Shown here piece by piece: positions 26,213 to 57,584 of a DNA stretch of 60,226 nt (positions are counted from its first letter, which is position 1; every line of letters starts with the position of its first letter). The position numbers were made by a program, and so were the translations under genes. The notes under the pieces are model-generated. The model was not told the origin of the DNA and did not search any database. It worked only from the letters and a program-made list of their open reading frames with translations. The stretch is from a virus, in IMG/VR virus record IMGVR_UViG_3300045988_163836. One strand, 5' to 3'.

Positions 26213-26780
26213 GGTCAAGTTTGAGAAATTTCATAAAGCATCGCTGACGTTAAATGGCACTTATATGAAAACGCGTAAGTAATATAAGATAGCAAAATTC
26301 TCGTAGTTCATCCTATTAGAGAATCTTAAAGAGTAATGGCAAGATCATATTGCGGGAGACCGTGCGTATGAGATACCAATAAAGGTAGCACATCTTGTGT
26401 TGAACAAGATAAAAGATGGAAAGGATACCTGCCATGTTTGGACAGCAAAAGAAGGCGTTGAATGTAATCGAAAAACATTCCGTTGGTTCTTAGGGGAGCG
26501 ACGTAACAGTGAAACCCGAGGTTTGAGTTACCTTGTCCAAACGCTATGTATAGTCAAAGTCTAGGCAACAAGGCTTTAATTAGAGTTAAAATTGTTTTAA
26601 TTAAACTCATACTTGTGGAAATCAAGCAGATCCACTTTACTGGGCCTACTGTAAAAGCCAGTTTGATATAGCCTCCATACCCAATGAGGAATTTTTATAA
26701 AAGTCTATTTAATTTTTCTTGGCAGTTTAATTAAGTAGACTATATGCGGGATTAGCTCAGCTGGTTAGAGCGTTTGGTTT

Positions 26781-27260
26781 ACTCGGCAAACTCTTTTAAT
26801 TTCTATTTTATGACACGAAATTCTAAAGAAGTCGGTAATTTAGCAGAATTACAATGTATTACTGGTCTTTATGAACTGGGATGTGATATTTCATTTCCTT
26901 TTGGAAATAGTCAAAAGTATGATTTAATTATGGATTATAAAGGTAAACTTTATAAAGTTCAAGTTAAACATGCTAAAGATGAATATACATTAGGAGAAAT
27001 TACACATTTTTCTTTTGCTACGAGATGGCAAAGTCATAATACGACTGGTTATAAAAAAACTCCATACACAAAAAATGATATTGATTTTTTCGCTACTTAT
27101 CACCAAGGAAAAGTTTATTTAATTCCTGTTGAAGAATGTAGCGGAGCTACTAAATCTATTCGTTATACCCCCCCTAAAAATGGACAACGAATTGGTATTA
27201 ATTTTGCTCAAGATTATTTGGCGGAGGAGGTGTTGAAGAAATTGTAAGAGCATTGCTAAG
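26781..27260 (+). other. intervening sequence in a tRNA anticodon loop (not group I), carrying a PD-(D/E)XK ORF
   Basis: About 480 nt, almost all of it ORF 26810..27247. This is too short for a group I core. Its termini form a helix stacked on the anticodon stem. Confidence 0.5.
26810..27247 (+). CDS. PD-(D/E)XK-fold nuclease-like protein encoded in a tRNA insertion (paralog 1 of 3)
   Basis: MTRNSKEVGNLAELQCITGLYELGCDISFPFGNSQKYDLIMDYKGKLYKVQVKHA has the motif D-x(n)-(D/E)-x-K. It aligns along its full length with the ORFs at 56076..56519 and 57052..57477. Confidence 0.6.
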   Translation: MTRNSKEVGNLAELQCITGLYELGCDISFPFGNSQKYDLIMDYKGKLYKVQVKHAKDEYTLGEITHFSFATRWQSHNTTGYKKTPYTKNDIDFFATYHQGKVYLIPVEECSGATKSIRYTPPKNGQRIGINFAQDYLAEEVLKKL

Positions 27261-27307
27261 TAATCCAAGAGGTCATTGGTTCGAATCCAATATCCTGCAC
27301 CAATAAA

Positions 27308-27347
27308 TTTGAAAATTTAAAAAAAATATTATATAATATATATATAA
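27308..27347 (+). promoter_or_regulatory. phage promoter consensus copy
   Basis: TTGAAAATTTAAAAAAAATATTATATAATATATATATAAT, followed by an RBS and ATG 27368. Confidence 0.5.
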
Positions 27348-27367
27348 TAATAAAGGAGATATTTGAA

Positions 27368-27535
27368 ATGGCAACTACTAAAAAACCTGCAATTAAAATG
27401 GATAATACAGAGTTGAACGAGTATCTTCTGTTTCGTCGTCGTAGATCTATTGTGCCTGCCAAGAAAGGTAAGGGTATGGAATATGATAGGGCGAAAGAAA
27501 AAGAGAAATCTGAAAAAATGATTTCTGATGAATAA
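27368..27535 (+). CDS. small basic protein (55 aa)
   Basis: RBS aaaggaga lies upstream. Lys/Arg-rich. The TAA stop abuts tRNA-Glu. Confidence 0.35.
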   Translation: MATTKKPAIKMDNTELNEYLLFRRRRSIVPAKKGKGMEYDRAKEKEKSEKMISDE

Positions 27536-27537
27536 AT

Positions 27538-27614
27538 CGGCGCATAGACAAATAGGTATAGTCACTACCCTTTCAAGGTAGAATGTAGGGGTTCGATCCC
27601 CCTTGCGCTGACCA
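27538..27614 (+). tRNA. tRNA-Glu (UUC)
   Basis: Acceptor CGGCGCA/TGCGCTG with one G.U pair. Anticodon arm CTACC-CTTTCAA-GGTAG. T-arm AGGGG-TTCGATC-CCCCT. A73 and CCA. Confidence 0.65.
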
Positions 27615-27619
27615 TTTAT

Positions 27620-27695
27620 GGTGCTGTAGTTTAGTTGGAAGAATGCCAGCCTGTCACGCTGGAGGTCATGGGGTCAGGACCCATCAGCATCGCCA
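27620..27695 (+). tRNA. tRNA-Asp (GUC)
   Basis: Acceptor GGTGCTG/CAGCATC with one G.U pair. Anticodon arm CCAGC-CTGTCAC-GCTGG. G73 and CCA. The T-loop GTCAGGA is atypical. Confidence 0.55.
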
Positions 27696-27726
27696 TTCGC
27701 TTTCCCGATATAAGCGATTTTGAAAC

Positions 27727-27787
27727 ATAGAACTTGATAGAGCGTTCTATTAATCTGATTAGATTAAGTTTTATAACTATCATATTT
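27727..27787 (+). repeat. 65-70-nt repeat directly upstream of a tRNA (copy 1)
   Basis: catagaacttgatagagcgttctattaatctgat...tagattaagttttataactatcatatttgg is about 90% identical to 28815..28882. It contains the hairpin ATAGAAC...GTTCTAT. Confidence 0.5.
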
Positions 27788-27863
27788 GGGGCACGGGACT
27801 GCATGGAGTGGTCGTCTCCCTTGCAAGGAGAAAAGCAGATGAGTTCGATTCTCATGTGTTCCA
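27788..27863 (+). tRNA. tRNA-Ala (UGC)
   Basis: Acceptor GGGGCAC/GTGTTCC with two G.U pairs. D-stem GACT/GGTC. Anticodon arm TCTCC-CTTGCAA-GGAGA. T-arm ATGAG-TTCGATT-CTCAT. A73. No CCA is encoded. Confidence 0.55.
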
Positions 27864-27995
27864 GTCATCTAATATTCACAACCGCCACGAGGTAGATGAT
27901 GGGTAATGCTAATAGTGGATAAAACGAAAATCGGGCAAAGCAAGTTAAACTCCTTAAAGTTTTTATCAAATATAGTAGAAAAGGAGTTGAATTAA

Positions 27996-28628
27996 ATGCC
28001 TAAAAAATTAACTCAAGAAGAATTTGAGCAAAGAGTTTATGAATGCGTTGGAGATAAATATTCTGTTATAAGCGAATATAATGGAAAATCTAAACCAATA
28101 GATTTAAAGTGTAATATTCATAACATTATATTTCAAGTATCGGCAGAGTGTTTTATGCGAGGTCCAAAAGAAATAAGATGTTCTTGTCCTAAATGTTCAG
28201 AAGAAAAGAAAAATGAAAAATTTTCTATAAATAGAACAGAATTAGAATGTGCTTATTGCGGAAGAAAATTTATTCGTTCAAATTCTAAATTAAATAATTC
28301 AAAAAGTGGAATATATTTTTGTTGTAGAGAACATAAAGATTTGGCTCAAAGAATAGATTTCGGATTAAAAGAAATTCAGCCAAATCATTATGGAAATGCT
28401 GTTGAAAATATTCATAACTATCGTAAAAATGCTTTTCGATATTATTCTCATAAATGTGCAGTCTGTGATTGGAATGAAGATGAAGATATCTTAGAAGTTC
28501 ATCATATTGATGAAAATCGAGATCATAATGAACTATCTAATTTAATTATTCTTTGTCCTATATGTCATAGAAAACTTAGTTCACATAAATATAAATTGAT
28601 TGATAGAGAACAAATTGTTCTTTGTTAA
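27996..28628 (+). CDS. HNH homing endonuclease
   Basis: Motif EVHHIDENRDHNELSNLIILCPICH. N-terminal Cys/His clusters. No in-frame TAG. Free-standing between tRNAs. Confidence 0.7.
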   Translation: MPKKLTQEEFEQRVYECVGDKYSVISEYNGKSKPIDLKCNIHNIIFQVSAECFMRGPKEIRCSCPKCSEEKKNEKFSINRTELECAYCGRKFIRSNSKLNNSKSGIYFCCREHKDLAQRIDFGLKEIQPNHYGNAVENIHNYRKNAFRYYSHKCAVCDWNEDEDILEVHHIDENRDHNELSNLIILCPICHRKLSSHKYKLIDREQIVLC

Positions 28629-28702
28629 TAAATAGTGTGATATATTCCAAACACGTAGGGTGGTAAGCACACGGGTTTTCTAGAAGCCTTCCCTATGAAC
28701 AT

Positions 28703-28778
28703 GGATGCATAGCTCAGTTGGTAGAGCAATTGACTGTTAATCAATGGGTCGGAGGATCATACCCTTCTGCATCCGCCA
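28703..28778 (+). tRNA. tRNA-Asn (GUU)
   Basis: Acceptor GGATGCA/TGCATCC. D-arm GCTC-AGTTGGTA-GAGC. Anticodon arm ATTGA-CTGTTAA-TCAAT. T-arm GGAGG-ATCATAC-CCTTC. G73 and CCA. Confidence 0.7.
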
Positions 28779-28814
28779 CCGCACTTGCGGAAAACATACA
28801 ACTCAACTGGTGCA

Positions 28815-28882
28815 TAGAACTTGATGGAGCGTTCTATTAGTCTGATGCCTGCATTAGATTAAGTTTTATAACCATCATACTT
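28815..28882 (+). repeat. 65-70-nt repeat directly upstream of a tRNA (copy 2)
   Basis: catagaacttgatggagcgttctattagtctgatgcctgcattagattaagttttataaccatcatacttgg. See 27727..27787. Confidence 0.5.
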
Positions 28883-28956
28883 GGGGACATAGTTTATGGT
28901 AGGAAAACGTTGAATTTAATTCAAAGTCGAGGGTGCGATTCCCTCTGGCTCCACCA
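28883..28956 (+). tRNA. tRNA-like gene with an atypical anticodon arm (TTGAA-TTTAA-TTCAA). A 7-nt loop reading gives anticodon UUA, which would read UAA
   Basis: Acceptor GGGGACA/TGGCTCC with one A.G mismatch. D-arm GTTT-ATGGTAGGA-AAAC. T-arm GAGGG-TGCGATT-CCCTC. A73 and CCA. The anticodon hairpin has either a 5-bp stem with a 5-nt loop, or a 4-bp stem with loop ATTTAAT. Confidence 0.35.
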
Positions 28957-29089
28957 TTTATGAAAGACAATACAGCAATTATACATTTGCTTTGGGAGCC
29001 GTGTGTTATAGGTTCGAGTCCTATTGTTTGGTCGAAGACCGAATATAGCGTAATTGGTAGCGCAACGTATAAAATTGTCTTGTTAATAT

Positions 29090-29162
29090 TGCGGGATCGT
29101 CAAGTGGTTAAGACACCAGCCTCATAAACTGGTTATCGTGGGTTCGAATCCCACTCCCGCAA
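29090..29162 (+). tRNA. tRNA-Met or tRNA-Ile2 (CAU)
   Basis: Acceptor TGCGGGA/TCCCGCA. D-arm GTC-AAGTGGTTAA-GAC. Anticodon arm CCAGC-CTCATAA-ACTGG with a C.A pair at 31:39. T-arm GTGGG-TTCGAAT-CCCAC. A73. No CCA. Confidence 0.6.
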
Positions 29163-29289
29163 GAGATACATTAATCAAGCCTCCACGGGGCGTATCTTGG
29201 GTAATGCTAATTGATTAAAAAATTTTTGGTCGCGGAAAATTAATTTTGCAACCAAAATTTCCATAATATTATGGAGGAGATAATAATTA

Positions 29290-29939
29290 TGGCTTATATT
29301 TATTAGATAACAAATAATATTAATGGAAAAATTTATGTTGGTAAAACATTAAAAAATAATATTTAGGAACGTTGGAAAGAACATTTAAGAGATTATAAAA
29401 AATCTAAATATGAAAAACGTCCTTTATATAACGCAATAAATAAATATGGTCCAGAAAATTTTTCTATTAAGGAATTAGAAGAATGTTCTGCTGAAGAAGC
29501 TAGCGAAAAAGAAATTTATTGGATTGAGAAATTAAACTCTTTTAAATATGGATATAATGCTACTAAAGGAGGAGATGGCAAGATAAAATATGACCATCAA
29601 AAAATTTTAGAAGCATTAAGAATAAATCCACGTCCAATTGAAATAGCTAAATTATTTAATTGTAGTTGTGATTTAGTTCAATAGATAGCTAAAGAACACC
29701 AAATTTAGATAATTAATCAAAGTAATGAATAGATGAAAAAAGAAAAATCCAAAAGTATTAGGCAATATAATAAAAATGGAATATTAATTAATACTTTTGA
29801 TTCTGTAGCAGAAGCTGGACAATGGTGTTTTGAAAATAAAAAATGTCTAAATTATAATTCTGGAGTTAGAAGTCATATTGCTGAATGTGCAAATGGAAAA
29901 CGTAAAACAGCATATGGTTATATCTGGAAATATATATGA
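29290..29939 (+). pseudogene. GIY-YIG homing endonuclease, frameshifted (1-nt shorter T-run near 29467-29470)
   Basis: MAYIYQITNNINGKIYVGKT...ERWKEH is the GIY-YIG motif. The paralog at 54788 reads ...GAAAATTTTTCTATT... with 5 T. This copy has 4 T. That splits the protein between the 29290 frame and the frame of ORF 29733..29939, which carries the C-terminal domain. Confidence 0.6.
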
Positions 29940-30066
29940 TTTATATGAAAAGCCCATACAGCAACTTTTAATAGGATAAATAAGAAATTCTGCAAAAATT
30001 TTTTAGAGTTGGTTCAAATCCAGCAAATGATTTTAGGGTTTTGTTAAAATTGTTAAGGAGAAAATA

Positions 30067-30252
30067 ATGAAGTTTAATCCAGGAGACAAGGTCTGGTGCA
30101 AGAGATATGGTAAGGGTAAGTGCCGCAAGGCTGATAATAAGGATAATTTTATGACTTATCTTTTCAGATTTTATGATGGCACTTTAATTTGGATGTCAAA
30201 ATATCAGGCTGAACATTTTGTAAAAGTTCGTTCCACCGAGGCCACGGTGTGA
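30067..30252 (+). CDS. hypothetical small protein
   Basis: RBS aaggagaaaa lies upstream. Confidence 0.4.
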   Translation: MKFNPGDKVWCKRYGKGKCRKADNKDNFMTYLFRFYDGTLIWMSKYQAEHFVKVRSTEATV

Positions 30253-30411
30253 ATATAAAGTCCGGTTATAGGAAATCCTGTCATTAGGCAGCAGGCTACC
30301 GGTAATCCTTTCTTATATATTTAAATATGTAAGGAACAAAAACTATACAATAGATAGAGTTTTTACGCCTTGGCGCAATGCTTGTTTTTTACTATCTATT
30401 TTTTTATATTT

Positions 30412-30498
30412 GGAGTCGTGGGATAATGGTATTCCAATGGATTGCTAATCCATCCTACCTCTTAGGTAGTCCGCGTTCGAGTCGCGGCGATTCCGCCA
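30412..30498 (+). tRNA. tRNA-Ser (GCU)
   Basis: Acceptor GGAGTCG/CGATTCC. Anticodon arm ATGGA-TTGCTAA-TCCAT. Long variable arm CCTACC-TCT-TAGGTAG. T-arm CCGCG-TTCGAGT-CGCGG. G73 and CCA. Confidence 0.75.
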
Positions 30499-30501
30499 TA
30501 T

Positions 30502-30585
30502 GTAGGAGTGCCAGAGTGGTCGATTGGGTTAGTCTCCAAAACTAATTGTAGCTACACATCCAGGGTTCGAATCCCTTGCTCCTAT
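30502..30585 (+). tRNA. class-II tRNA with an apparent CCA anticodon (Trp codon), unusual
   Basis: Anticodon arm TTAGT-CTCCAAA-ACTAA. Long variable arm TGTAG...CTACA. T-loop TTCGAAT. The acceptor and D-stem pairing is ambiguous (GTAGGAG or TAGGAGT). Confidence 0.4.
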
Positions 30586-30991
30586 GCGGTATCATATAGA
30601 GAACCTTTCCGTGGTGATACTATTTAAACTAATCTCTATGAAACTTATTTCCACTTTTTTAAGTTTCTATGGTTAAACCCTGTTGAGGGCAAAGACTACA
30701 GGGTATTCCTTTCCATCCCTCATACATTAAGACTCATTTTCAGCAAACTTTTGCCTGCAAAGGTTCTACATACTTATTTATTACTAATAGATGAAAAAGT
30801 ATAATAAAGAAAATAAAGTATATTTTGAAAAGTTTTTTCTTTTTAGCTAGTTTAGTAAGCTAAATTCCGCGTTTTTATTTTGGCTTTTCAATGAGTCTTG
30901 TTTTTTAAAATAATTGGTATCGCTAAGCTTCATGGTAATTGTGGCGTATTTAAATCATAGATAGTTAAGGGTCTATAGCCAATTATAATAT

Positions 30992-31080
30992 GCGGAATTA
31001 ACTTGCCCGGCGGTAAGCCTTGTCTTGAAAACAAGTGGTCCTGTGACAGGGATGGGGATCGACACCTCAGTTCCGCGCCA
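30992..31080 (+). tRNA. tRNA-Ser (UGA)
   Basis: Acceptor GCGGAAT/GTTCCGC. Anticodon arm CTTGT-CTTGAAA-ACAAG. Long variable arm TCCTGT-GA-CAGGGA. T-arm TGGGG-ATCGACA-CCTCA. G73 and CCA. Confidence 0.7.
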
Positions 31081-31117
31081 CTCGTTTCAAATTCGTTCAT
31101 TGCATTTCATCCTTTCT

Positions 31118-31162
31118 GTAAAGATGGACTGATTAGATTAATCAGTCCATCTTTTTTTTTAT
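31118..31162 (+). terminator. rho-independent terminator
   Basis: AAAGATGGACTGATTAGATTAATCAGTCCATCTTT followed by 9 T. Confidence 0.7.
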
Positions 31163-31311
31163 ATATTTTAAAGACAGTAGGTTATAGGGGTTCGGGCCGA
31201 CTTGGACCATTAAAACCGAATGCTTGAATTAAAATTCCATTTAAGAAATTTTCGGTCCAACAGGTATAGAGCAATATAAAATAATTTTAAATATGAAAGG
31301 AGAAGAACAAT

Positions 31312-31425
31312 ATGAAAATGTTTATTCTTTCATATAAGGGCGGCAAAGATGGCGGCGACATTGATAAAGAAGATACTTCCAAGTCAACGGGCGGCTGGGA
31401 TGGCGGCTCTATAGATGATGATTAA
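31312..31425 (+). CDS. small Gly/Asp-rich protein
   Basis: RBS aaaggagaag lies upstream. 37 aa. Confidence 0.3.
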   Translation: MKMFILSYKGGKDGGDIDKEDTSKSTGGWDGGSIDDD

Positions 31426-31442
31426 AGAAAGGAGAACACGAG

Positions 31443-32516
31443 ATGGCTGAAATTATTAAATTAAGACGCGGTAAATCAACTAGCTGGTCTAAAAAGAATA
31501 TAATTCTTGCAGCTGGTGAAATCGGCGTAGAACTTGATACACATTAGATTAAAGTCGGCGATGGTTCAACCCCTTGGAATGAACTATCTTATGTAGGCGG
31601 AACTAAAGTTGTTAATGTTCAAGAATACACTGATAATCCTGCGGTTGTAGATGGTGTGCCTTATCAATCTATTGATGTGGCATTTATGAAAGCTCCAGCA
31701 GGAAGTACAATTCGTCTTAATGCTAACTTTGATAACAGTGTTTCTATTGATAAAGCATTGACTATTGAATTAAATGGTAATGATATTATTAATAATGAAA
31801 AAACGCCAATAGATATCAAAGCAAACGGCGATTTAACTATTAAGGGCCAAGGTACTATTGAATGTAATAAGAATGAAAATGCCGCAGTTTTTAATAATGG
31901 TAATATTACTATTAATAATGGTAAATTACAACGTACTACTGATGTAGCAGGTAATGGTTATTATACTGCTGTTAATCATGGCACTATGACAATCAATGGC
32001 GGCATGTTTATGAGTGGTGGCGAATTTTCTAGCATGATTGAAAATGGCTATTGGGATTATCACGCTGGTAATACTACTAATGGCTATGTTCAAGGCCAAA
32101 ATGCTGAAATGCCTACATTAACTATTAATGATGGTACATTCGCTGGCGGCTTATATGCTATAAAAAATGATGATAATGCTGTTTTAAATATTAATGGCGG
32201 CACATTCTATAATACTATTCTTGCTAATGGTAAGTCAATAACTATCACTGATGGGTATTTTGAAAATAGTAAGCCAAGTCAAGGCGAATATAATTTTTAT
32301 CTTCGTAAATTAAGTGAAGATTTAAATCCTCAAAATACATATATTAGCGGTGGTACATTTATTACTGCACAAGATAAGAATTTCAAGGTTGAGGGCGACC
32401 CTCGTATTGAAATTAGTGGTGGTCGTTTTAATAGAGAATTAGATCCTTCTTATCTAGCTCCTGGCTATAGACAAGTACTTGTCAATGGCTTCTATACTGT
32501 CTAGAAGGAGGAATAA
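31443..32516 (+). CDS. tail fiber or tailspike-like protein (N-terminal KxGDGxTxW module plus beta-helix-like repeats)
   Basis: N-terminus IIKLRRGKSTSWSKKNIILAAGEIGVELDTHQIKVGDGSTPWNELSYVGG. TAGs at 31548 and 32502 are read as Gln. Repeats of the form NGN/ITINNG/INGG follow. Confidence 0.55.
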
Positions 32517-32519
32517 TCT

Positions 32520-33035
32520 ATGGCTGATATCATCAAGTTCAAAAGAGGTCGATCAATTACATGGCGCGAAAAAAACTTATTGCTTAAGGATGGCGAGCCT
32601 GGATTTGAATTAGACACTCATAAACTGAAAATTGGTGATGGTAAAACCTTATGGAATGATTTACCATATATTGGTGGCGAAAGTGGTACAATTGATCTTC
32701 CTGATAATGTAATGGAATTTTTAGGCACAGTTGATACACTTCCAGCTACCGCTGAGGATGGAGAAATGTGTATTTATAATGGTAAATTATATATTTACGA
32801 TGGTAAATGGACAACTACAGAAACTTCCTCTCCAGCACAAAATTCTTTCAATTCTTTAGTAGATGCAATTAACTATATTACCTAGCATAATTGTGTTGGT
32901 CAAATTGTATCTATTTTTTAGAATAATAAATGGTTGCCTTATATTGTAGATGTAAATAATGATCTTGTACCTATTCAATATGGAGAAGATAGTTATGATA
33001 TCCTCAATGGCGGTGACGCAAATACTCTTAATTAA
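32520..33035 (+). CDS. tail fiber-associated protein (KIGDGKTLW module)
   Basis: IIKFKRGRSITWREKNLLLKDGEPGFELDTHKLKIGDGKTLWNDLPYIGG. TAGs at 32883 and 32919 extend the frame to TAA 33033. The C-terminus YDILNGGDANTLN resembles the end of 34302..36935. Confidence 0.5.
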
Positions 33036-33057
33036 TTTTATAGGAGGAAAATGATTT

Positions 33058-34278
33058 ATGGCTGATAAAACTCTTAATACTCGTATTCAAGTATTAAATG
33101 ATACTACTGCCAATCTTGCGGCGAAGAAAGATAAAGTTCCCCTTCGTGGTGAAATTGTCTATGATAGTGATCTTCATAAAATGAAGATTGGTGATGGTGA
33201 ATCCACTCTTGAAAACTTAACCTTTGTTGGCGGTGATGAAGCTAAAAATTTCGAAGCTATTCCAGCAGGTGAGGAAACTGATGTTCAGGCTATTACTCGT
33301 GTTGTAGCTTCTGCAGAACTTCATAATGGCGATACTGCTATTGTAAAGCGTGTTATTACTGGCGATAAGATTTCTTATACTGCTTATGTATATGATGGTA
33401 CTTGGAAAGCTATGGATGGCAATTATCGCGCTGACAATGTTTATTTTGATGATGACATTACTTATACCGTTGCTATTGGTACTCTTTCTAAGCCTTCGGG
33501 TTCTGCTAAATTTGCGGCGAAAGGTAAGAATGTCGAACAGGTGCTTTCTAGCCTAATGGCTCAAGAGGCTAATCCCACTAAGTCCAATCCTGCTGTTAGC
33601 TTCAGCGCACAGGGCGGCTTTGGTACATTTGAGATTGGTACTAAAAAGAATCTAACATATACAGCAGCTCTATCTACTGGTAGTTATACCTATGGTCCAG
33701 CTACTGGTATTGCGGCTTAGACTTGGGAAGTTAGTTGCACTGGTGTAACCGAAAAGAAAACAACTGCAACAGGTACTTTTGAAAATGTTGTTGCTGAAGC
33801 TACTGCTAAGAAGATTACAGCTAAAGCAACTTATAATGAAGGATCTATTCCAGTAACCAATTTGGGCAATCCTTATCCTGCGGGTAAAATTGCAGCAGGC
33901 TCTGCTTCTAAGGATAGTAATATTCTTCAGGGTGTTCGTTATATGTTCTGGGGTCCTATGACTTCTGATGCTGGACTTAACTCTGCTAATGTTCGTGCTC
34001 TTGCTCATAAACAAGCTTAGGGCGCTGGTACATTAGGCGCATTTGGTGCTGGAGCTGGCGCAAAGAAAGTTATCGTTGCAGTTCCTGCTGGTTGTAAGAT
34101 TACGAAGGTTCTTATGCTAAGTGCTCTTAATGCTGATGTTACAGCTCTATTTGTTAAACAAGGCACTACTGTTAGTGTTGAAGGTGCTGAAAGCTATGCT
34201 GCAGCTCCTTATGATGTATATGTCTATCAACCTGCTTCTATTGACGCTGGTGAAACATATAGCGTTACGATTGGTTAA
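33058..34278 (+). CDS. tail fiber protein (KIGDGESTLENL module)
   Basis: TAGs at 33718 and 34018 are read as Gln. Ala/Gly-rich. Higher GC than surroundings. Confidence 0.55.
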
Positions 34279-34301
34279 TTTTGAAGGAGGAATAATATAA
34301 T

Positions 34302-36935: not shown

Positions 36936-36948
36936 TTTAATAAATTAT

Positions 36949-36973
36949 AAGGGGAGAGAAATCTCCCCTTTCC
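36949..36973 (+). terminator. rho-independent terminator
   Basis: AAGGGGAGAGAAATCTCCCCTTT. Confidence 0.6.
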
Positions 36974-36988
36974 ATTAGGAGGATTGGA

Positions 36989-37330: not shown

Positions 37331-37334
37331 TAAT

Positions 37335-37368
37335 AAAGACTCCATTTTGGAGTCTTTATTTTTTTTTA
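37335..37368 (+). terminator. rho-independent terminator
   Basis: AAAGACTCCATTTTGGAGTCTTT followed by a T-run. Confidence 0.65.
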
Positions 37369-37448
37369 TCTGGACTAATTTAAATAATTTGATATTTTTA
37401 TTTTTTATATAATTTTAGAATAAGAAACATTGAAAGGAGGAACTTTCA

Positions 37449-44930: not shown

Positions 44931-44954
44931 TTTATATAATAATAAAAAAAGAAG

Positions 44955-47451: not shown

Positions 47452-47471
47452 CATTTAAAGGAGAAAAAGGA

Positions 47472-50275: not shown

Positions 50276-50525
50276 TTTAGATAATATTTTAAAAGAAATT
50301 ACAAATAATATTATAAAAGAAAATAAGGGATATATGGATTTATTATTTGTTATATACAATAATATGGTTACTTTAGAAGAACCAAATCCAGAAGTCAATA
50401 AAAAAATAATTTATACCTTAGCAAATTTATTATAGAATTAGGATTTACGACTAAAAGATTTAAATATAGATTATTCAAAAGAATTAAATAAATTAACAAA
50501 TTAGCTATATTCTATAGGAGAATAA
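50268..50525 (+). CDS. small hypothetical protein (85 aa)
   Basis: ATG overlaps the upstream stop. About 4 in-frame TAGs. Possibly an accessory or second precursor. Confidence 0.35.
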
Positions 50526-50527
50526 AA

Positions 50528-51376
50528 TTGATTAAATTTACCTTACCTGATTTTTACTATTTTCATACTGTAAATGATAAATTTATTAATTTATCAAGAA
50601 GCCATACTAATTGGCTTCTTGATAAAAACATAGTTTTTTCCTATATTAGAGGGACATTCCCTTATAATATTTGGAATGGAGGATTAAATAACATGGTTGG
50701 TGATACTTTATTGTATCCTAATATAGAATTAATAATTAAGCAAAGTAATTTACCTTTGTGGTTAGATTTTTCTAATATTTTATTAGAAAAATCAGATTTC
50801 TATGATGTAATGAGTAATGTAATTTTAAAATTATTACCAAATAATTGCATTTTTGAAATTAGTAATTTAGATTTATTAAATTATATAAATAACAAATTTC
50901 CTAATTTGAAATATGTTATTTCTAAAAATGCTAATATCTTATATCCTCTTACTCCCGATATTATAAATAATTTTCATCAAAATTTAAATCCATTATATAT
51001 AATAATCCCTAACGAGTTTAAAACTTCACAGCAATATTTAAATGAAATTAATAATAAAGAAAATATTATAATTCCAGTTAATAATCTTTGTAATCCAAAA
51101 TGTAAAAATTATTTTCAATGTCCAATAGTAGAAAATAATAATATATTAAATTATACATTTGAACCTACATTTTGTAATTGTAAAAATTCTATAAATAATA
51201 AACAATATATAACGATTAAAGAAATTAAAGATATTTATATCCCTATGGGTATCACTAATTTTTTAATAGATTATTTCTCTAACAATGAAAATGAATACGG
51301 TCTATTTTTAATTAATTATTTTATTAAACCAGAATTTAAAGAATATGCCTTTCAAGAATTATTTATAAGGAGATAA
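50528..51376 (+). CDS. Cys-motif paralog A (unknown function)
   Basis: TTG start 7 nt after GGAG. Contains NIWNGGLNN and the Cys cluster LCNPKCKNYFQCP...FCNCKNS. Paralogous to 51387 and 53695. Confidence 0.5.
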   Translation: MIKFTLPDFYYFHTVNDKFINLSRSHTNWLLDKNIVFSYIRGTFPYNIWNGGLNNMVGDTLLYPNIELIIKQSNLPLWLDFSNILLEKSDFYDVMSNVILKLLPNNCIFEISNLDLLNYINNKFPNLKYVISKNANILYPLTPDIINNFHQNLNPLYIIIPNEFKTSQQYLNEINNKENIIIPVNNLCNPKCKNYFQCPIVENNNILNYTFEPTFCNCKNSINNKQYITIKEIKDIYIPMGITNFLIDYFSNNENEYGLFLINYFIKPEFKEYAFQELFIRR

Positions 51377-51386
51377 AATATAAGTA

Positions 51387-52319
51387 ATGATTAATTTTAA
51401 TTTACCAGGTATGTATGAAACATACCAATTAAATAAATTAACAATTGAACAACTTAATAAATAGCCAGAAATTTTTAATAAAAATATTACAATTCATGCT
51501 TGTTATGGAAATTTCCAATTTTGTTCTTGGGAAGGCGGCAGAACTTTTACTAATTTTAAAACTCATTAGGCTTTAAAGAAAGATATTGAGGAAATTTTTA
51601 ATTTTTATAATTCTTATAATATTGCGGTCAGATTAGTTTTTACAAATTAGTTATTAACTAAAGAAAATTATAATAATCGTTTTGAAAATCTCATTTTAGC
51701 TATTGGAAATAATGGATTGAATGAAATTGTAATTAATAATGAAGGGTTAGAAGAATATATTAGAAATAAATATAATAAGTATAATTTTATTTCTTCAACC
51801 ACTAAAAGAATTACAAATTTAGAACAAAGTTTAAATGAAATTAAGAAAGCTCAATATAAATTTATTTGTTTAGATTATGATTTAAATTCTAATATAGATT
51901 TTTTAAAACAAATTCCTTTAAATTTAAAAAATAAAATTGAATTATTATGTAATGCAATTTGTATTCCTAATTGTCCAAATCGTATTAATCATTATAAAAT
52001 CAATAGTGAATATGCTTTATCTTATGGAAAACCTTATACATTAAATTGTAAAGCAGTTAAAAGTGTTAATAGCCCAGAAGTTATTGCTTATAAGAATACA
52101 GTAACATTAGATAATATTTATAATTTGTATTATCCTCTTGGTATTGAATAGTATAAATTAGAGGGACGTTCTTTAAATTATATTGATAATATATGTACTT
52201 ATGCTCGATATTTATTATTACCAGAATACCAATATGATTTTATTGAACATTGTGTAACAGATATTTTAGGAGTCACTGATGAACGACAAATACTGCTTTG
52301 TAACACTTGCAACAACTGA
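51387..52319 (+). CDS. Cys-motif paralog B
   Basis: FCSWEGGRTF, then ...ELLCNAICIPNCPNRINHY. About 6 in-frame TAGs. Its 3' end overlaps the GT8 gene. Confidence 0.45.
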
Positions 52320-52914
52320 TAAATATATTAAATGTGCTTGTGCCTTATATTTTTCATTAAAAAAAGTTAATAGTAAATATCCATTTTTACTATTAACTAC
52401 TAATAATGTATCAGATATTTATTTTAAAATTTTAAAAAAAAATAATATAAATTATAAAATAATAGAATAGCCAATTTATTTTTGTGGAGATTCTAATTTT
52501 TATAAAGATACCGCTAATAAATTTTTTATTTATACTTTAACTTAGTACAAAAAAATTTGTTTTATAGATGCTGATATTTTAATTGCTGAAAATATTGATA
52601 ATATTTTTGATTATCCAGATGGTAGTTTTTATGAAGTATATGATAACTAGGAATCTAAAGGACGATTAAGTGGCGGAATAGCTATAATAAAGCCAAATAA
52701 AAATTTATATAAATCAATATTATAGTTTTATATAAATTTTCAAACAGATGAAGAAATATTTAATATCTTATATCCTAAATATTATCATTTACCAAAATTT
52801 TATTATAAACATGATACTGACCATTATCCTGATAAATGGGCTTTTCATTTAACAATATTTAAAATAAAAAAATTAATTGAACATACAAAAAATTTAACTA
52901 TACTATTGAGGTAA
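52279..52914 (+). CDS. family-8 glycosyltransferase (glycogenin/LgtC-like)
   Basis: CFVTLATTDKYIKCACALYFSLKK...FIDADILI is the GT8 N-terminus with a DxD motif. There are 4 in-frame TAGs. Confidence 0.55.
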
Positions 52915-52916
52915 CT

Positions 52917-53663
52917 ATGGATTATTTTTTATATGGATTGATCGATGGTTCTTACCAGCATGGAATAAATAATAACACAAGTGATATAGATATTATTGAA
53001 ATCTATTCTTCTTTTATAAATATGGAAAAAGAATTAAAAAAAATTTCAAATTTTGATTTAAATTTAATTCCATAGGAATAGTCTAATAATTTTATGAAAA
53101 AATTTAATATTATAAATTGGAATCCTTCAAGGCGGATTTATACAGGAGAACATTTTATTTATAATTTATTTTATAATAATAACTATAGTTATTATAGATG
53201 GTTATTCCCTTATCATTATTTAAGTGATAATGAATTTACTTTAGAAATAAAAAAAATTAATGAAGATATAGTTAAAGAAAATTTACCAGTCATTTATTCT
53301 CAATTAATTAATGAAAGTAATAGATTATTTTAGACTGGATTACGAGAAAATTATTATAAATTAAAAAATTATTATAAATTAATTTATAAATCTTTTATTG
53401 ATCTAATAATAATAATTGAATATTATAAAACAAAAAGTTATAAACAAAGTTTATAGCTAGGAATGTATAAACCATATATTTTAGATATAAAAAATAATTT
53501 TAATAATTACAGTAATTTTGATTTTATAGTAAAAAGAAATGAACTTTTAAATAAAATTTCAGAAATAAAAAATTTTTATTTAAATGCTCCTACTAACACA
53601 AAATATCAAAATTAGTTAATTCAAAAAATGGAGAATACAAATTATTCAAAATTTTATATTTGA
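52917..53663 (+). CDS. nucleotidyltransferase-fold protein
   Basis: GLIDGSYQHGINNNTSDIDII matches the GS-x(n)-DxD motif. About 6 in-frame TAGs. Confidence 0.5.
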
Positions 53664-53694
53664 TAAAAAGTAAAAAATATTATATAATTTAAAT

Positions 53695-54570
53695 ATGAAA
53701 AAAATAAATTTAAATTGTCCGGGATTTTATACTGGATTTAATATATATAAAACTCTTTTAGAATTACAATAGACAGCTCCAGAATGTTTCAATTTTAATG
53801 TAGCTATAGAGAGTATATTCGATACATTCCCAAATATGATTTGGAATGGAGGAACTGTCAATCAAGGCTATCAACCTTCATTAGAAAAAATAAAAGAAAT
53901 TATTGATTTTTATTATGGAAATAATATAGAAATTGCTTTAACCTTAACAAATCCATTATTAACAAAAGAAGACTTGTATGATAGATATTGTAATAAAATC
54001 GTTTCCTTATGTGAAAATGAAAATAATTCAATTTTAGTTTCTTCCTCTATTTTAGAAGAATATATAAGAAATAAATATCCTAAATTTAAAATTAAAAGAA
54101 GTATAATAGCTTCAAATAAAAATACAGATTATTTGTCTCTTTTAAATAAATATGATAAAATTGTTTTACCTCGAAGACAAATAAAAGATTTTAAGTTTTT
54201 AGAATCAATTCCAATAGAAGTAAGAAATAGATTTGAACTTTTATGCAATGACCCTTGCCCGATTATTTGTCCATATTTATATAAACATTATAATGGATTT
54301 GCTAAAATAACTTTATATGAAGAAGTAACTTCAAAAGATATTTTAAAATGTAAAACATTAAAAAGTGATGATCCTTTAAAGAATTTTCATTATAAGAATG
54401 ATCAAATTACTTATAATGAAATATGTGAAAAATATTTACCATTATTTTATAACAGCTTTAAATTAAGCGGTCGAAATGATGTATTCACTATAATTTTTTC
54501 AATAGTTCCTTTTTTCTTTAAGCAAGAATATCAATTAGAATTAGCACATTATTTATGTTGTATAATTTGA
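53695..54570 (+). CDS. Cys-motif paralog C
   Basis: MIWNGGTVNQGY, then ...ELLCNDPCPIICPYLY. One TAG at 53767 joins the ATG 53695 start to the 53836 ORF. Confidence 0.5.
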
Positions 54571-54635
54571 AAATTTAAAAAAAATTTTATATAATATATA
54601 TAGAAATTGAGGGAAAAATAAATTCTCTCTTAAAT

Positions 54636-54708
54636 GCCGGCATAGCACAGTTGGTAGTGCAATTGATTTGTAATCAATAGGTCGGGGGTTCGAATCCGTC
54701 TGCCGGCT
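54636..54708 (+). tRNA. tRNA-Thr (UGU)
   Basis: Acceptor GCCGGCA/TGCCGGC. D-arm GCAC-AGTTGGTA-GTGC. Anticodon arm ATTGA-TTTGTAA-TCAAT. T-arm GGGGG-TTCGAAT-CCGTC with one mismatch. No CCA. Confidence 0.6.
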
Positions 54709-54787
54709 CGCTATCATGTGAAAGCCTTCTCGTGGCGATAGTGTTTTAACTAATTTCACAATTATTTATTAAAGGAGTCATTTAGAT

Positions 54788-55423
54788 ATGGCATACATTT
54801 ATTAGATAATAAATAATATTAATGGAAAAATTTATGTTGGTAAAACAGTAAAAAATAATATTTAGGAACGTTGGAAAGAACATCTTAAAGATTATAAAAA
54901 ACCTAGATGTGAAAAACGTCCTTTATATGACGCAATGAATAAATATGGTTCAGAAAATTTTTCTATTAAAGAGTTAGAGGAATGTCCATTAGAAGAACTT
55001 AATGATAAAGAAGTTTATTGGATTGAAAAATTAGGTTCTTTTAAATATGGATATAACGCTACAATTGGCGGAGATGGCAAACAATATATTGACTATGATT
55101 TAGTATGCGAAACATATAAGAATTTACAATGTATTGTAGATACTGCTAAACAATTAAATATTAGTGAAGATTCAGTTTCTAAAATTTTAAAATTATATAA
55201 AATTGATATTATTCCTAATGCTAAAATAGTTCAAAATAAGTATGGGAAAATAATTAATATGTATGATTTAAATGATAATTATTTAAGGACTTTTCCATCA
55301 ACAACTGAAGCAGCTAAATTTATGGTAGAAAATAAATTAACTAATTGTAAAATGACTACTATAAAACAACATATTTCTGAAGTATGCAAATGTAAACGAA
55401 ATACAGCTGCTAAGTTTAAATGA
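54788..55423 (+). CDS. GIY-YIG homing endonuclease (intact copy)
   Basis: MAYIYQIINNINGKIYVGKTVKNNIQERWKEH...YGYNATIGGDG. There are 3 in-frame TAGs. It is 75-80% identical to the frameshifted copy at 29290. Confidence 0.7.
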
Positions 55424-55451
55424 AAATATGCTTAATTATTATACCATTAGC

Positions 55452-55548
55452 CAAGATTGGATAGTTAATAAAACCGTTTCTAGTTAATAGATTCTAGATG
55501 GCCGGGACTCAAAACTGCTGGCAATTCTAATCTTGGCTATTTTCTTTT
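55452..55548 (+). terminator. terminator-like long hairpin
   Basis: TAGCCAAGATTGG...AATCTTGGCTA followed by TTTTCTTTTATTT. Confidence 0.45.
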
Positions 55549-55629
55549 ATTTGAAAAAATTAAAAAAATAGTATATAATATATATACAAAATAAAGAAAA
55601 AAATAAATGAGAAAAAGGTGTTAAAAGTT

Positions 55630-55983
55630 ATGGAATATTCTCTGGATAAGTACAAGTATTTTATTCCCACTAAGGCAGATGGTACGCCGTATAAGGTTGT
55701 TGCAGTTTCTACTTATGCTGGTAGGACTGTGCGTGGTGTAGCCAAGTGTGATCCGAAGGATACATTTGATACTGAAAAGGGTAAGCAGCTTGCCGCAGCA
55801 CGTTGCCAGGCGAAGGTCAGTTCTCAGCGTCTGAAGCGTGCTACTAAGAAGCTTGATGAAGCTGCTAAGGCACTTGAGAAGGCACAGAAGTATTATGATG
55901 ATATGACTGTGTATTTCAATGATAGTGCAAGAGATAAGGAAATGTATGATAGCGTAGTTGAAAGACTCGCTAAGGAAATGTAA
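55630..55983 (+). CDS. hypothetical protein on a GC-rich island
   Basis: The ORF is about 45% GC. The start could be ATG 55630 or GTG 55618. A terminator hairpin follows (AAGGGTAATTAATTACCCTT). Confidence 0.5.
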   Translation: MEYSLDKYKYFIPTKADGTPYKVVAVSTYAGRTVRGVAKCDPKDTFDTEKGKQLAAARCQAKVSSQRLKRATKKLDEAAKALEKAQKYYDDMTVYFNDSARDKEMYDSVVERLAKEM

Positions 55984-56048
55984 TAAATAAGGGTAATTAA
56001 TTACCCTTTATATCCGGGTGTAGTTCAGTTTGGTAGAACGCTTGATTT

Positions 56049-56527
56049 GGGAAAAGAGATTTTTGTCTAAAAAATATGTTAGATATTACTCAACAGAAAG
56101 GAACTGTAACAGAGTTAAGATGTATTCTTGATTTAACTAATCTTGGATATAGATGTTTAAAATCTGTTGATGAAAGTTCTAAATATGATGTAGTAGCTGA
56201 TATGGGGATGGGTAAATTTATCCGTATTCAATGTAAAACATCTTCTTGGGTTACTGATACAAAAGAACCTAATGTAGCTTTTGCAATTGCTACAAGTTGT
56301 ATTACCACTAATACAAAATCTACTACTCGTCATAAGTATTCAAAAGATGATATTGATTATTTTTATACTTGGTTTGAAGGCCAAGGATATTTAGTTTCCA
56401 TTGAAGAAGCTACTGGTGCAACTTTTAGATGGCGGTATGAATATCCTTCATCTGGTCAAAAACAGGGTATTCATATCGCTAATGATTACAAAATTGAGGA
56501 GGTCTTAAAGACAATCTAAGATTTTCC
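56049..56527 (+). other. intervening sequence in a tRNA anticodon loop (not group I), carrying a PD-(D/E)XK ORF
   Basis: Almost all of it is ORF 56076..56519. Confidence 0.5.
56076..56519 (+). CDS. PD-(D/E)XK-fold nuclease-like protein encoded in a tRNA insertion (paralog 2 of 3)
   Basis: ...SSKYDVVADMGMGKFIRIQCKTS... and ...IDYFYTWFEGQGYLVSIEEATGATFRWRYEYPSSGQKQGIHIANDYKIEEVLKTI align with 26810..27247. Confidence 0.6.
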   Translation: MLDITQQKGTVTELRCILDLTNLGYRCLKSVDESSKYDVVADMGMGKFIRIQCKTSSWVTDTKEPNVAFAIATSCITTNTKSTTRHKYSKDDIDYFYTWFEGQGYLVSIEEATGATFRWRYEYPSSGQKQGIHIANDYKIEEVLKTI

Positions 56528-56918
56528 TGGATCAAGAGGCCGTGAGTTCAAGTCTCGCCACTCGGACCATCAGGGTTCTGTTAAAGATACATAATTGAAA
56601 AGGATTGATCTCCCTAAGTAGATTTGTATTGGAATGAAAAAATGAGGTCTAGATGACACAGATAACCTCCCCTGAACCATCCCTTTTGTTAGTAGGTTGT
56701 CGGGGTTAAATAACTAACAGTAAAGACACACGCAGCAAATATTAGATAAAATCTATGTGTTATTGGTTCAAGTCCAATATTATCTCTGTTAAGATAATTC
56801 ATCCAAAGGGTAGGATAATAGTTAATTTATTTAATGTGTCTTGTAAATTTGAATTTTAAAAAAAAATATTATATAATATATAAGTAATCAATAAGAAATT
56901 ATTAATTACTTATAATTT

Positions 56919-56993
56919 ACTGGTGTCGCCAAGCGGTAAGGCACAGGACTTTGACTCCTGTATTCGTTGGTTCAAATCCAGCCACCAGTGCCA
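56919..56993 (+). tRNA. tRNA-Gln (UUG)
   Basis: Acceptor ACTGGTG/CACCAGT. D-arm GCC-AAGCGGTAAG-GC. Anticodon arm CAGGA-CTTTGAC-TCCTG. T-arm GTTGG-TTCAAAT-CCAGC. G73 and CCA. Confidence 0.75.
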
Positions 56994-57033
56994 ATATAGG
57001 TCAGTACAGTGTAATTGGTATCACCCCTGACTG

Positions 57034-57474
57034 GTTTGAAGGAGGTTCATTTTGTAGTCAAAAAGTAACAAAGATAAAGGACGTTTTGGATTAGCTATGG
57101 CTATTGCCTATTTCACTGACAAAGGCTATACAGTCTCAACTCCTTTAAATGATACTCAGTGGTATGATTTAATTATAGAACGAAATGGTAAATTTTAGAC
57201 AGTTCAATGTAAATGTACTGGAAGTTAGGATAATGTTATAATGTTAAGATCTTGCGGTGGTACTAAAGGAACTGTTTATGATAATGTTTTAAATCATTCT
57301 GAGCTTGATTTATTATTTTGTATAGATGTTCAAGGTAATATGTATGTAATTCCATTAAAAGAAATTTTAAAATCAGGAAATACAAAATAGATTACTTTAC
57401 GAACAGCTCCAACAAGCAATAATCAAGGCTTTTAGACTTATAAATTTCGAGTTCGATTCTCGTTTCAAACACCA
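57034..57474 (+). other. intervening sequence in a tRNA anticodon loop (not group I), carrying a PD-(D/E)XK ORF
   Basis: It carries the RBS GAAGGAGG and a TTG start at 57052. Confidence 0.5.
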
Positions 57475-57477
57475 TAA
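57052..57477 (+). CDS. PD-(D/E)XK-fold nuclease-like protein encoded in a tRNA insertion (paralog 3 of 3)
   Basis: TTG start. There are 5 in-frame TAGs. ...NDTQWYDLIIERNGKFQTVQCKCTGS... has the motif D...E.K. ...LDLLFCIDVQGNMYVIPLKE... aligns with the other two paralogs. Confidence 0.55.
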
Positions 57478-57584
57478 ATCAGGTGCTTAATGCGGTTGTT
57501 GGTTCAAGTCCAACCTGGCCTACCATTTAAAATAAAATTTGAAAATTTAAAAAAAATATTATATAATATATATATAATAAATGA

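Follow-up and report, generated by a model that had tools for sequence, protein, structure and literature searches.

Endonuclease-encoding insertions without a ribozyme in the anticodon loops of viral tRNA genes

Introns of bacteria and phages are generally regarded as self-splicing elements of group I or group II. The closest described relatives of the elements considered here reside in cyanobacterial tRNA-fMet genes, where a group I intron carries the gene for the homing endonuclease I-Ssp6803I. This enzyme reportedly cuts the pseudo-palindromic DNA of an anticodon stem-loop and leaves 3-nt 3′ overhangs at the site of insertion. A 2014 review observed that every phage intron then known was located in a protein gene, despite the many tRNA genes of phages (PMC3984707), and a 2026 survey of bacterial tRNA introns describes groups I and II only (PMC13011429). 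In the current study, we analyzed a 60,226-nt stretch of viral DNA (IMG/VR record IMGVR_UViG_3300045988_163836; hereafter the window), which represents 60 kb of a 142-kb genome. Reading of the sequence and location of the exons identified three tRNA genes, for Val, Pro and Tyr, whose anticodon loops carry insertions of 441-480 nt, each filled by an open reading frame (ORF). A fourth interrupted gene in the same window, for tRNA-Ile(UAU), lies outside the range first reported.

The three long insertions encode endonucleases of the I-Ssp6803I family, contain no ribozyme, occupy defined sites, and belong to a group of elements whose RNA ends covary and whose presence differs between closely related phages. 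Based on sequence comparisons, we consider it moderately probable that these are mobile tRNA introns that would be removed by trans-acting enzymes rather than by self-splicing. They probably constitute a new class of tRNA intron, and their conserved RNA ends point to an undescribed, enzyme-dependent form of tRNA intron removal in bacterial viruses. No account of tRNA introns lacking a ribozyme, in either phages or bacteria, emerged from a full-text literature search of incomplete coverage, and a prior description is possible.

Interrupted tRNA genes and their endonucleases

In their unspliced form, the Val, Pro and Tyr genes are not called as tRNAs by either ARAGORN or Rfam. Once each insert is deleted in silico, ARAGORN reports full-length tRNA-Val(tac) at [1,77], tRNA-Pro(tgg) and class II tRNA-Tyr(gta), all of which encode CCA, and the fourth gene likewise becomes tRNA-Ile(tat). 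These results agree with an earlier note on this DNA, which had described three split tRNA genes with encoded CCA and ORF-filled insertions of 440-480 nt. That note had left the second gene as Pro- or Gln-like, and only Pro stands because the spliced form is called tRNA-Pro(tgg). The predicted spliced junctions are GGTTTACATCCAAG for Val, GATTTGGGATCAAG for Pro, and CCTGACTG joined to TAAATCAGG for Tyr (also given as CCCCTGACTGTAAATCAGG). A repeated GA leaves the Pro junction free to shift by as much as 2 nt. Uninterrupted homologues in related phage loci, which are identical at 82% (Val), 92% (Pro) and 93% (Tyr) of positions, have anticodon loops exactly as predicted. Intron-less alleles of this kind, which the earlier note had proposed to seek, agree with the insertion sites. 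The coordinates of all features are collected in the table below.

Each of the three long insertions encodes a protein that matches PF11645 (PDDEXK_5) well above the curated cut-off of 26.1 bits (91.1, 69.5 and 64.2 bits for the Val, Pro and Tyr ORFs). The proteins are 25-37% identical to one another, as expected from the paralogy already noted. An AF2 model of the Val-intron protein (pLDDT 90.9) has as its best Foldseek match in the PDB the I-Ssp6803I structure 2OST (TM 0.73, E 3e-9), followed by SPARDA nucleases and Hjc resolvases, and EndA shows no similarity among the structural matches of this model. No domain is present beyond those of I-Ssp6803I. Residues Y37, D38, Q51 and K53 are invariant in alignments of 23 and 30 sequences and align with the YDL...QVK segment of 2OST. 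The suggested PD-(D/E)XK signature was therefore right in the nuclease fold and wrong in the motif, which is the I-Ssp6803I-like D...QxK rather than (D/E)xK. The window proteins are I-Ssp6803I-type homing endonucleases. Of the two roles proposed earlier, homing fits the presence or absence of a related intron among Enterococcus phages, whereas a dedicated splicing role finds no similarity to EndA to lean on; cleavage of RNA by the intron protein is a possibility for the Val and Pro introns only. Homologues are numerous, with more than 220 found in metagenomes for the Val-intron protein and 1172 for the Tyr-intron protein. The database protein P0121 matches the latter at 100% identity from Met16.

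The Tyr-intron ORF is open only when TAG is read as a sense codon, because it contains five in-frame TAG codons. A suppressor tRNA(CUA) is encoded at 59088-59162, and reading of TAG as sense in late genes is evident from the many in-frame TAG codons between 31 and 54 kb. Structural or late genes have up to 12 such codons and early genes 0-2. The differing TAG load of the three endonuclease genes (five for Tyr, none for Val and Pro) suggests that they may be expressed at different times. Their stop codons also differ in placement. The TAA of the Tyr-intron ORF forms U35-A36-A37 of the 3′ exon, whereas those of the Val and Pro ORFs are located 15 and 10 nt upstream of the 3′ junction, so that the earlier description of a TAA at every 3′ junction applies to the Tyr gene only.

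No ribozyme is present in these insertions. Searches of 24000-27450 and 55900-57650 with Rfam models revealed no intron family at the gathering threshold or even at E<=10, as the earlier note had anticipated, and Intron_gpI is also absent from 20 related loci. The same search reports Intron_gpI at 52-75 bits beside 10 distant homologues (26-29% identical) residing in tRNA-fMet genes, and this negative result is therefore supported by a control in which the same tool finds group I cores. A group I core requires approximately 200 nt or more of RNA, its 5′ exon ends in U (to form a U:G pair in P1), and the last intron nucleotide is an obligatory G. The introns in the window have approximately 20-45 nt of non-coding RNA each, and family-1 introns (n=50) have 18-30 nt before the start codon and 14-17 nt after the stop codon. 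Synonymous-site identity is flat along the ORF (0.44-0.72), and thus no RNA appears to be hidden in the coding part. Furthermore, the 5′ exons end in C36 (Val), G36 (Pro) and G34 (Tyr), and the last intron nucleotides are A, G and A. The catalytic core (P3-P9), the amount of RNA and the U/G terminal nucleotides of group I introns are all lacking.

One might still imagine a new small ribozyme, or a degenerate intron of group I, in the ORF or the terminal helices. In tRNA-fMet genes, true group I introns carry endonucleases of this family, and a tandem wobble/mismatch by one type of 5′ splice site (pairs 12-52 and 13-51 of the class B introns described below) could bind metal ions. We regard such a cryptic ribozyme as very improbable because there is no covariance-model match, the non-coding sequence is too short, synonymous sites are unconstrained, and the terminal nucleotides of exons and introns are not those of group I.

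The arrangement recurs at more than 100 metagenomic and viral loci. Matches among viral contigs were obtained with an alignment as the query; a single-protein query gave none. Every resolvable locus of family 1 (at least 39% identity) is a split tRNA, always interrupted at 36/37, and none is free-standing. Most of these loci are in Val-UAC genes, and the other targets are Ala-UGC, Thr-UGU, Thr-AGU, Ile-GAU, Met/Ile-CAU and Pro-UGG; tRNA-Pro genes with the same arrangement as that in the window occur at eight viral loci. Family 3 is present in 51 viral contigs of 60-400 kb, where its genes are located either inside tRNA-Tyr or free-standing directly upstream of an intact tRNA-Tyr; in several IMG/VR contigs (L100, L104, L110, L120 and others) the free-standing genes end 5-25 nt upstream of it. 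These genes are a possible evolutionary precursor of the intronic form. Among cultured phages, free-standing homologues are found beside tRNA genes in T5-like phages and in a haloarchaeal virus.

One cultured phage carries the intronic form. In Enterococcus phage EFP01 (KY549443.1, 105113-105963; locus L148), the gene EFP01_109 lies within an unannotated split tRNA-Asn(GUU). The phages iF6, EFDG1 and at least 27 other Schiekviruses have flanks that are 96-98% identical to those of EFP01 and an intact tRNA-Asn with the loop CTGTTAA, which fixes the EFP01 junction at 36/37. The predicted spliced sequence is CTGTT joined to AACC, also given as GACTGGCTGTT joined to AACCAGTTC. The difference between EFP01 and its relatives is a classical intron+/intron- polymorphism. 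Exon nt 7-30 are repeated in degenerate form over 24 nt in the 3′ end of the EFP01 intron (20 of 24 positions identical, z 7.8), which hints at a recombinational origin. As a general origin for these introns, partial exon duplication was rejected because it is significant in EFP01 only and the median z of family 1 is 0. Separately, the terminase gene of EFP01 is annotated in four pieces.

Features of the interrupted tRNA genes in the window, in order of position
Feature	Position	Strand	Remarks
tRNA-Ile(UAU) gene	24079..24226	+	Rfam tRNA match with insertion, 46.6 bits
tRNA-Ile(UAU) parts: 5′ exon; intron of 73 nt without ORF, at 36/37; 3′ exon	24079-24113; 24114-24186; 24187-24226	+	
5′ exon of tRNA-Val(UAC), positions 1-36	26746..26782	+	anticodon TAC 26780-26782
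Val rod, 5′ strand: anticodon and intron nt 1-7 (H1, TACTCGGCAA), unpaired A 26790, H2 CTCTTT	26780..26796	+	
Val class B intron, 480 nt, at 36/37	26783..27262	+	no Rfam family at E<=10
Val-intron ORF, 145 aa, I-Ssp6803I-family homing endonuclease, 0 in-frame TAG	26812..27247	+	PF11645 E 8e-26; 2OST E 5.5e-8
Val rod, 3′ strand: H2 TAAGAG (holds stop codon), conserved unpaired CA 27251-27252, H1 TTGCTAAGTA	27245..27262	+	
3′ exon of tRNA-Val, positions 37-76, CCA encoded	27263..27302	+	ARAGORN on spliced sequence
5′ exon of tRNA-Pro(UGG)	56014..56050	+	intact homologue 92% identical
Pro H1: TGGGAAAA paired with TTTTCCTG	56048-56055 with 56522-56529	+	
Pro class B intron, 479 nt, at 36/37	56051..56529	+	
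Pro-intron ORF, 147 aa, I-Ssp6803I-family endonuclease, 0 in-frame TAG	56076..56519	+	PF11645 E 3.7e-19
3′ exon of tRNA-Pro	56530..56569	+	ARAGORN on spliced sequence
5′ exon of class II tRNA-Tyr(GUA), last nt G34	56998..57033	+	intact homologue 93% identical, loop CTGTAAA
Tyr class A (tRNA-like) intron, 441 nt, at 34/35 (G34/U35)	57034..57474	+	
Tyr acceptor-like 5′ strand GTTTGAA, intron nt 1-7	57034..57040	+	7/7 pairs with 57464-57470; proposed RNase P site directly 5′ of 57034
Tyr-intron ORF, 141/126 aa, start TTG 57052 or ATG 57097, stop TAA 57475-57477	57052..57477	+	PF11645 E 1.6e-17
Tyr mimic: T stem TCGAG, T loop TTCGATT, T stem CTCGT, acceptor TTCAAAC, tail ACCA	57447..57474	+	proposed RNase Z site after 57474
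3′ exon of tRNA-Tyr	57475..57525	+	ARAGORN on spliced sequence

Structured RNA at the intron ends

The ends of the introns fall into two types. Those of the Tyr and Ile introns (class A) mimic the top half of a tRNA. In the Tyr intron, the mimic has an acceptor stem with 7/7 pairs and a T stem with 4/5, and the 73-nt Ile intron gives the same counts and has the tail GCCA. Indeed, the Ile insert is itself called as a cloverleaf by ARAGORN, such that one tRNA is nested in another. An exact tRNA register is seen in 11/11 class A introns, with a T stem of 5, a T loop of 7 (TTCRAWT), a T stem of 5, an acceptor strand of 7, then N or NCCA, and then the exon. Both the Tyr and the 73-nt introns thus have the structure of a minihelix substrate for RNase P and RNase Z. 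Class A insertions occur at 34/35, 35/36 and 36/37, and the splice sites are thus set by the intron rather than by the host tRNA.

The T-arm copy of the Tyr intron is encoded within the final codons of its ORF (RVRFS). Free-standing homologues beside intact tRNA-Tyr genes have different ends that lack the T-arm mimic and hairpin, and therefore the mimic is an RNA-level property of the intronic copies. A possibly related case is a tRNA-Leu(UAA) in the viral contig L027 (834-966), which carries a 49-nt ORF-less insertion at 32/33 that starts with GCTAG and ends with CTAGC-ACCA; its fold is less clear and not in exact register. The same contig contains a class B intron in a tRNA-Thr.

The Val and Pro introns (class B) have ends that form an anticodon rod. 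Proceeding outward from the tRNA body, the anticodon stem is followed by a 2x2 internal loop (nt 32 and 33 versus nt 37 and 38) and then by a 10-bp helix, in which the three final nucleotides of the intron are paired to the anticodon and intron nt 1-7 to nt -10 to -4. Beyond this helix are a conserved asymmetric loop (A versus CA), a 6-bp helix with the stop codon on its 3′ strand, and the ORF as a terminal loop. In the Val intron, for example, the last 3 nt of TTGCTAAGTA pair with the anticodon. The continuous helix holds the 5′ splice site at a distance of 3 bp from its end, and the 3′ splice site is at the helix/loop boundary. The two sites are on opposite strands, one at either end of the 3-bp anticodon duplex, and are related by a pseudo-symmetric 3-nt 3′ stagger. 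No T-arm copy is present and the tail is 3 nt, which sets these introns apart from substrates of RNase P and RNase Z.

The terminal pairings pointed out in the earlier note (TACTCGGCAA with TTGCTAAGTA, TGGGAAAA with TTTTCCTG, and GTTTGAA with TTCAAAC) are all present and lie far beyond chance. Across 40 distinct homologous introns of class B, 92.3% of cells pair, versus 72.3% in shuffled controls and 32-41% with slid partners. Double-sided changes are seen in 19/21 pairs, and the observed covariation score was reached by none of 500 shuffles. The anticodon and the last three intron nucleotides also change together, as in TAC/GTA, TGT/ACA, TGC/GTA, AGT/ATT, GAT/ATC and TGG/CTG. G:U pairs are frequent and make up 5/10 pairs in the Ala introns, and thus the constraint acts on RNA rather than on inverted repeats in DNA.

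Two other candidates were rejected. Terminal inverted repeats or a cruciform in DNA would contain G:T at half of the pairs of the Ala introns. Alternative class B junctions generate nonsense or wrong anticodons and conflict with the G3:U70 identity of tRNA-Ala.

The succession of helix, internal loop and helix had led the earlier note to propose a relaxed bulge-helix-bulge (BHB), and archaeal-type splicing, with EndA-like cutting and joining by RtcB, might be considered on the strength of this look, of a 3′-staggered cut topology in the same sense, and of one related locus that is located in a contig binned to a Methanomethylophilaceae genome. The details do not bear this out. Neither 3-nt bulges nor a 4-bp central helix, nor the relaxed HBh′ form, can be seen in these introns. 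The 5′ site of the Val and Pro introns is inside a helix, that of class A introns is at the base of a 7-bp helix with the 3′ site behind a tail of 1 or 4 nt, and the Tyr intron is a tRNA mimic with an ACCA tail. Moreover, the insertions are at 34/35 and 36/37 rather than 37/38. The hosts are Bacillota, as indicated by the Enterococcus phage, an SLH-domain gene on the same contig and sigma-70-type promoters, and we know of no EndA in bacteria. The intron protein is not EndA-like, and no EndA match was found among the scanned window ORFs. We therefore give BHB splicing only the faintest chance.

Candidate routes of removal

The class A ends form an acceptor/T-arm mimic with N or NCCA after it, and their splice sites therefore coincide with sites expected for RNase P and RNase Z. 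RNase P leaves a 3′-OH on the leader, and RNase Z leaves a 5′-phosphate on the trailer. It seems reasonable to propose that RNase P would cut exactly at the 5′ splice site, which is position +1 of the mimic (57033/57034 in the Tyr gene), and that the RNase Z cut would fall precisely on the 3′ splice site (57474/57475), after CCA in this case and after the discriminator in CCA-less relatives. RNase Z is known to cut after the discriminator of CCA-less precursors or after CCA, leaves a 3′-OH, and needs no more than an acceptor stem (PMC7479834). The tRNA body would keep the halves together, and an ATP-dependent RNA ligase of the phage or the host (Rnl-type) might then seal them. With 3′-OH and 5′-phosphate ends of this kind, the exons would be directly ligatable. 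This explanation for the Tyr intron is specific and testable.

For class B introns, we propose that the 3-bp anticodon center between the anticodon stem and the 7-bp intron helix would be cut at both ends, with either a dimeric enzyme from the host or the phage or the endonuclease encoded by the intron as the candidate nuclease. According to the last of these options, the rod copies the center and one half-site of the DNA target, and a dimer or tetramer of the protein would make the same 3-nt 3′-staggered cuts in RNA. A two-fold pseudo-symmetry in which the cuts bracket the 3-bp anticodon duplex, the reported 3-nt 3′ overhangs of I-Ssp6803I, and the exclusively intronic location of the resolvable family-1 homologues (at least 39% identity) are consistent with this idea. 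We nevertheless judge it improbable given that the intron-side helix is unlike the second half-site in DNA, that such an activity is unnecessary for class A introns, and that the protein has no extra domain relative to I-Ssp6803I. To our knowledge, no homing endonuclease of the PD-(D/E)XK type cleaves double-stranded RNA. An extended conjecture is that phages own a complete protein- or ribonucleoprotein-dependent splicing system, with class A introns processed by RNase P and RNase Z, class B introns cut by their own PD-(D/E)XK enzyme acting on an RNA replica of its DNA target, and a ligase joining the exons; the class B part of this conjecture is doubtful.

Sealing by an RNA ligase is inferred from the predicted ends. 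Genes of the RNA-repair type in the window encode an AAA_33/polynucleotide-kinase-like protein (4648-5193), an RlaP nucleotidyltransferase (PF10127, E 6e-6; 11644-12459) and a calcineurin-like metallophosphoesterase (12657-13436). The endonuclease itself most likely would serve to spread the intron by cutting intron-less tRNA genes of co-infecting phages. For the Tyr intron, the five TAG codons might delay translation until the suppressor tRNA is available, such that the RNA could fold freely early in infection.

Several observations suggest that the interrupted tRNAs are used. Among 39 distinct tRNA-Val genes, the acceptor-stem pairs are kept in 35-38/39 across a gap of ~475 nt, with 4-6 pair types per position, and G3:U70 is retained in the tRNA-Ala genes, as read from their sequences. 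ARAGORN and Rfam detect 14-17 ordinary tRNAs in the window, and none of these is another Val, Pro, Tyr or Ile-UAU tRNA. The conserved exon pairing, the identity elements and the presence of sole copies favor, without proving, functional tRNAs. Frequent homing into intact genes could mimic such conservation.

Other facts weigh against enzymatic removal. Splicing itself is a proposal from sequence. Phage tRNAs are often dispensable, and a disrupted gene could persist for this reason. No RNA ligase (Rnl or RtcB) was found by Pfam and PHROG scans of 27 window ORFs or by a scan for the KxDG motif, within 60 kb of the 142-kb genome. In the Tyr intron, the ORF runs through the T-arm mimic and the acceptor strand, and so translation and folding would compete. 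Two familiar nucleases do not fit class B. RNase III cuts with a 2-nt stagger, which would lose C36 or keep an extra nucleotide, and RNase Z, cutting after the base that follows the 7-bp helix, would leave 2 extra nt because the required 3′ cut is 3 nt past that helix. For class A, CCA with Mg2+ is a strong inhibitor of the Bacillus-type RNase Z (PMC7479834).

These considerations bring up the possibility that the tRNA genes are simply disrupted. A selfish gene would then reside in dispensable tRNAs, its terminal structures would release the endonuclease mRNA, through punctuation of the tRNA type by RNase P and RNase Z, or stabilize it as a protective hairpin, and the halves would never be rejoined. 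The lack of a ligase in the scanned ORFs agrees with this, as do the viability of EFP01, whose relatives keep an intact tRNA-Asn, and the partial 5′-exon duplicate in its intron, with its hint of recombination. Furthermore, homologous endonuclease genes are often free-standing beside intact tRNAs, where RNase P would also define the mRNA end. We consider simple disruption unlikely, however, because the cuts defined by the mimic match the exon boundaries to the nucleotide at three loop positions, a precision that mRNA release does not need. In class B introns, the final three nucleotides change with the anticodon, and even among widely diverged genes the exons retain compensatory pairing and identity elements. 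In addition, no second tRNA gene for Val, Pro, Tyr or Ile-UAU is seen in the window.

If the insertions are spliced, as we favor, they would provide a third route of tRNA intron removal outside archaea and eukaryotes and a natural splicing substrate for the RNA ligases of bacteria and phages. They would also exemplify a selfish endonuclease gene made phenotypically neutral by tRNA-processing signals in place of a ribozyme. Hidden tRNAs would be added to many large phages of gut, rumen and Enterococcus, and the failure of standard tRNA finders on such genes would be explained. The question can be addressed directly because the cultured phage EFP01 has intron-less sister phages.

Neighboring features and comparison with known systems

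A number of other features of the window were noted. Among the ordinary tRNAs is a tRNA-Phe with anticodon AAA (A34) at 25052-25122, and an A34 tRNA-Phe is unusual for bacteria. The sigma-70-like promoter motif TTGAAAATTTAAAAAAAATATTATATAATATATA is repeated upstream of tRNA and ROOL units (~24020-24050, 27308-27345, 56848-56885 and 57538-57575). A full-length ROOL RNA (323 bits, 57604-58197) begins ~80 nt past the interrupted tRNA-Tyr with its own promoter-like motif in front, and a RAGATH-33 RNA is present at the end of the window (60099-60211). No ROOL or GOLLD RNA occurs within 1.5 kb of 20 related intron loci, and thus ROOL is not tightly linked to these introns. Between tRNA-Pro and the next promoter is an unannotated stretch of ~230 nt (56570-56800) without an Rfam match, which ends in an acceptor/T-arm minihelix at 56744-56786 (AGATAA...ATTGG TTCAAGT CCAAT ATTATCT C). 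Free-standing genes resembling those for homing endonucleases are scattered among the tRNAs (25576-26139, 27996-28628, 29271-29939 and 54788-55423) and comprise one HNH, one Cys-rich HNH-like and two closely related GIY-YIG/NUMOD1 genes. Finally, three paralogous proteins of 475-572 aa (8733-10451, 14749-16392 and 18883-20310) share the motif SIHPLDYLTMSDN..WESCMNW and Cys-rich C-termini and have no Pfam match.

Comparisons with described systems reveal both shared and distinct features. The free-standing endonucleases of phage tRNA clusters (T4 segB and those of the T5 tRNA region; My1_056, SelmaRatti bas34_0081 and HSTV-4 gp71) belong to the same family beside tRNAs and presumably target them. 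In those cases the genes are located between tRNAs, whereas the window copies are inside tRNA genes. In T4 anticodon-loop repair (PrrC, Pnkp and Rnl1), a ligase seals a break in the loop while the tRNA body holds the halves, and the window also encodes kinase-, phosphoesterase- and RlaP-type proteins. The T4 system, however, mends a host-inflicted break in a continuous tRNA, whereas the window case would involve two cuts that remove an insertion, with no ligase identified in the window.

Other tRNA-like signals, including those of mitochondrial tRNA punctuation, the mascRNA of MALAT1 and minihelix substrates, resemble class A introns in that an acceptor, a T arm, a discriminator and CCA in register are the determinants for RNase P and RNase Z. 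In contrast to these, the class A mimic is nested in the anticodon loop of another tRNA, a 140-codon ORF separates the acceptor 5′ strand from the T arm, and ligation of exons would be required.

Archaeal BHB introns, including the rRNA introns that carry LAGLIDADG enzymes (I-DmoI and I-PorI), share with the window introns the absence of a ribozyme, a dependence on trans-acting enzymes (proposed for the window introns), the possible presence of an endonuclease ORF, and splice sites set by a helix of the intron ends. The window introns differ in that they have no BHB motif, occur in bacterial viruses, and are inserted at other positions. The ends would also be distinct, given that EndA generates a 2′,3′-cyclic phosphate and a 5′-OH, whereas a 3′-OH and a 5′-phosphate are predicted from the action of RNase P and RNase Z.

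The cyanobacterial tRNA-fMet intron (I-Ssp6803I, 2OST) has in common with these elements the endonuclease family, a target in the anticodon loop of a tRNA, and an ORF inside the intron. Unlike that group I intron, the window introns have no ribozyme core and are filled by the ORF, and their conserved RNA consists of terminal helices or a tRNA mimic.

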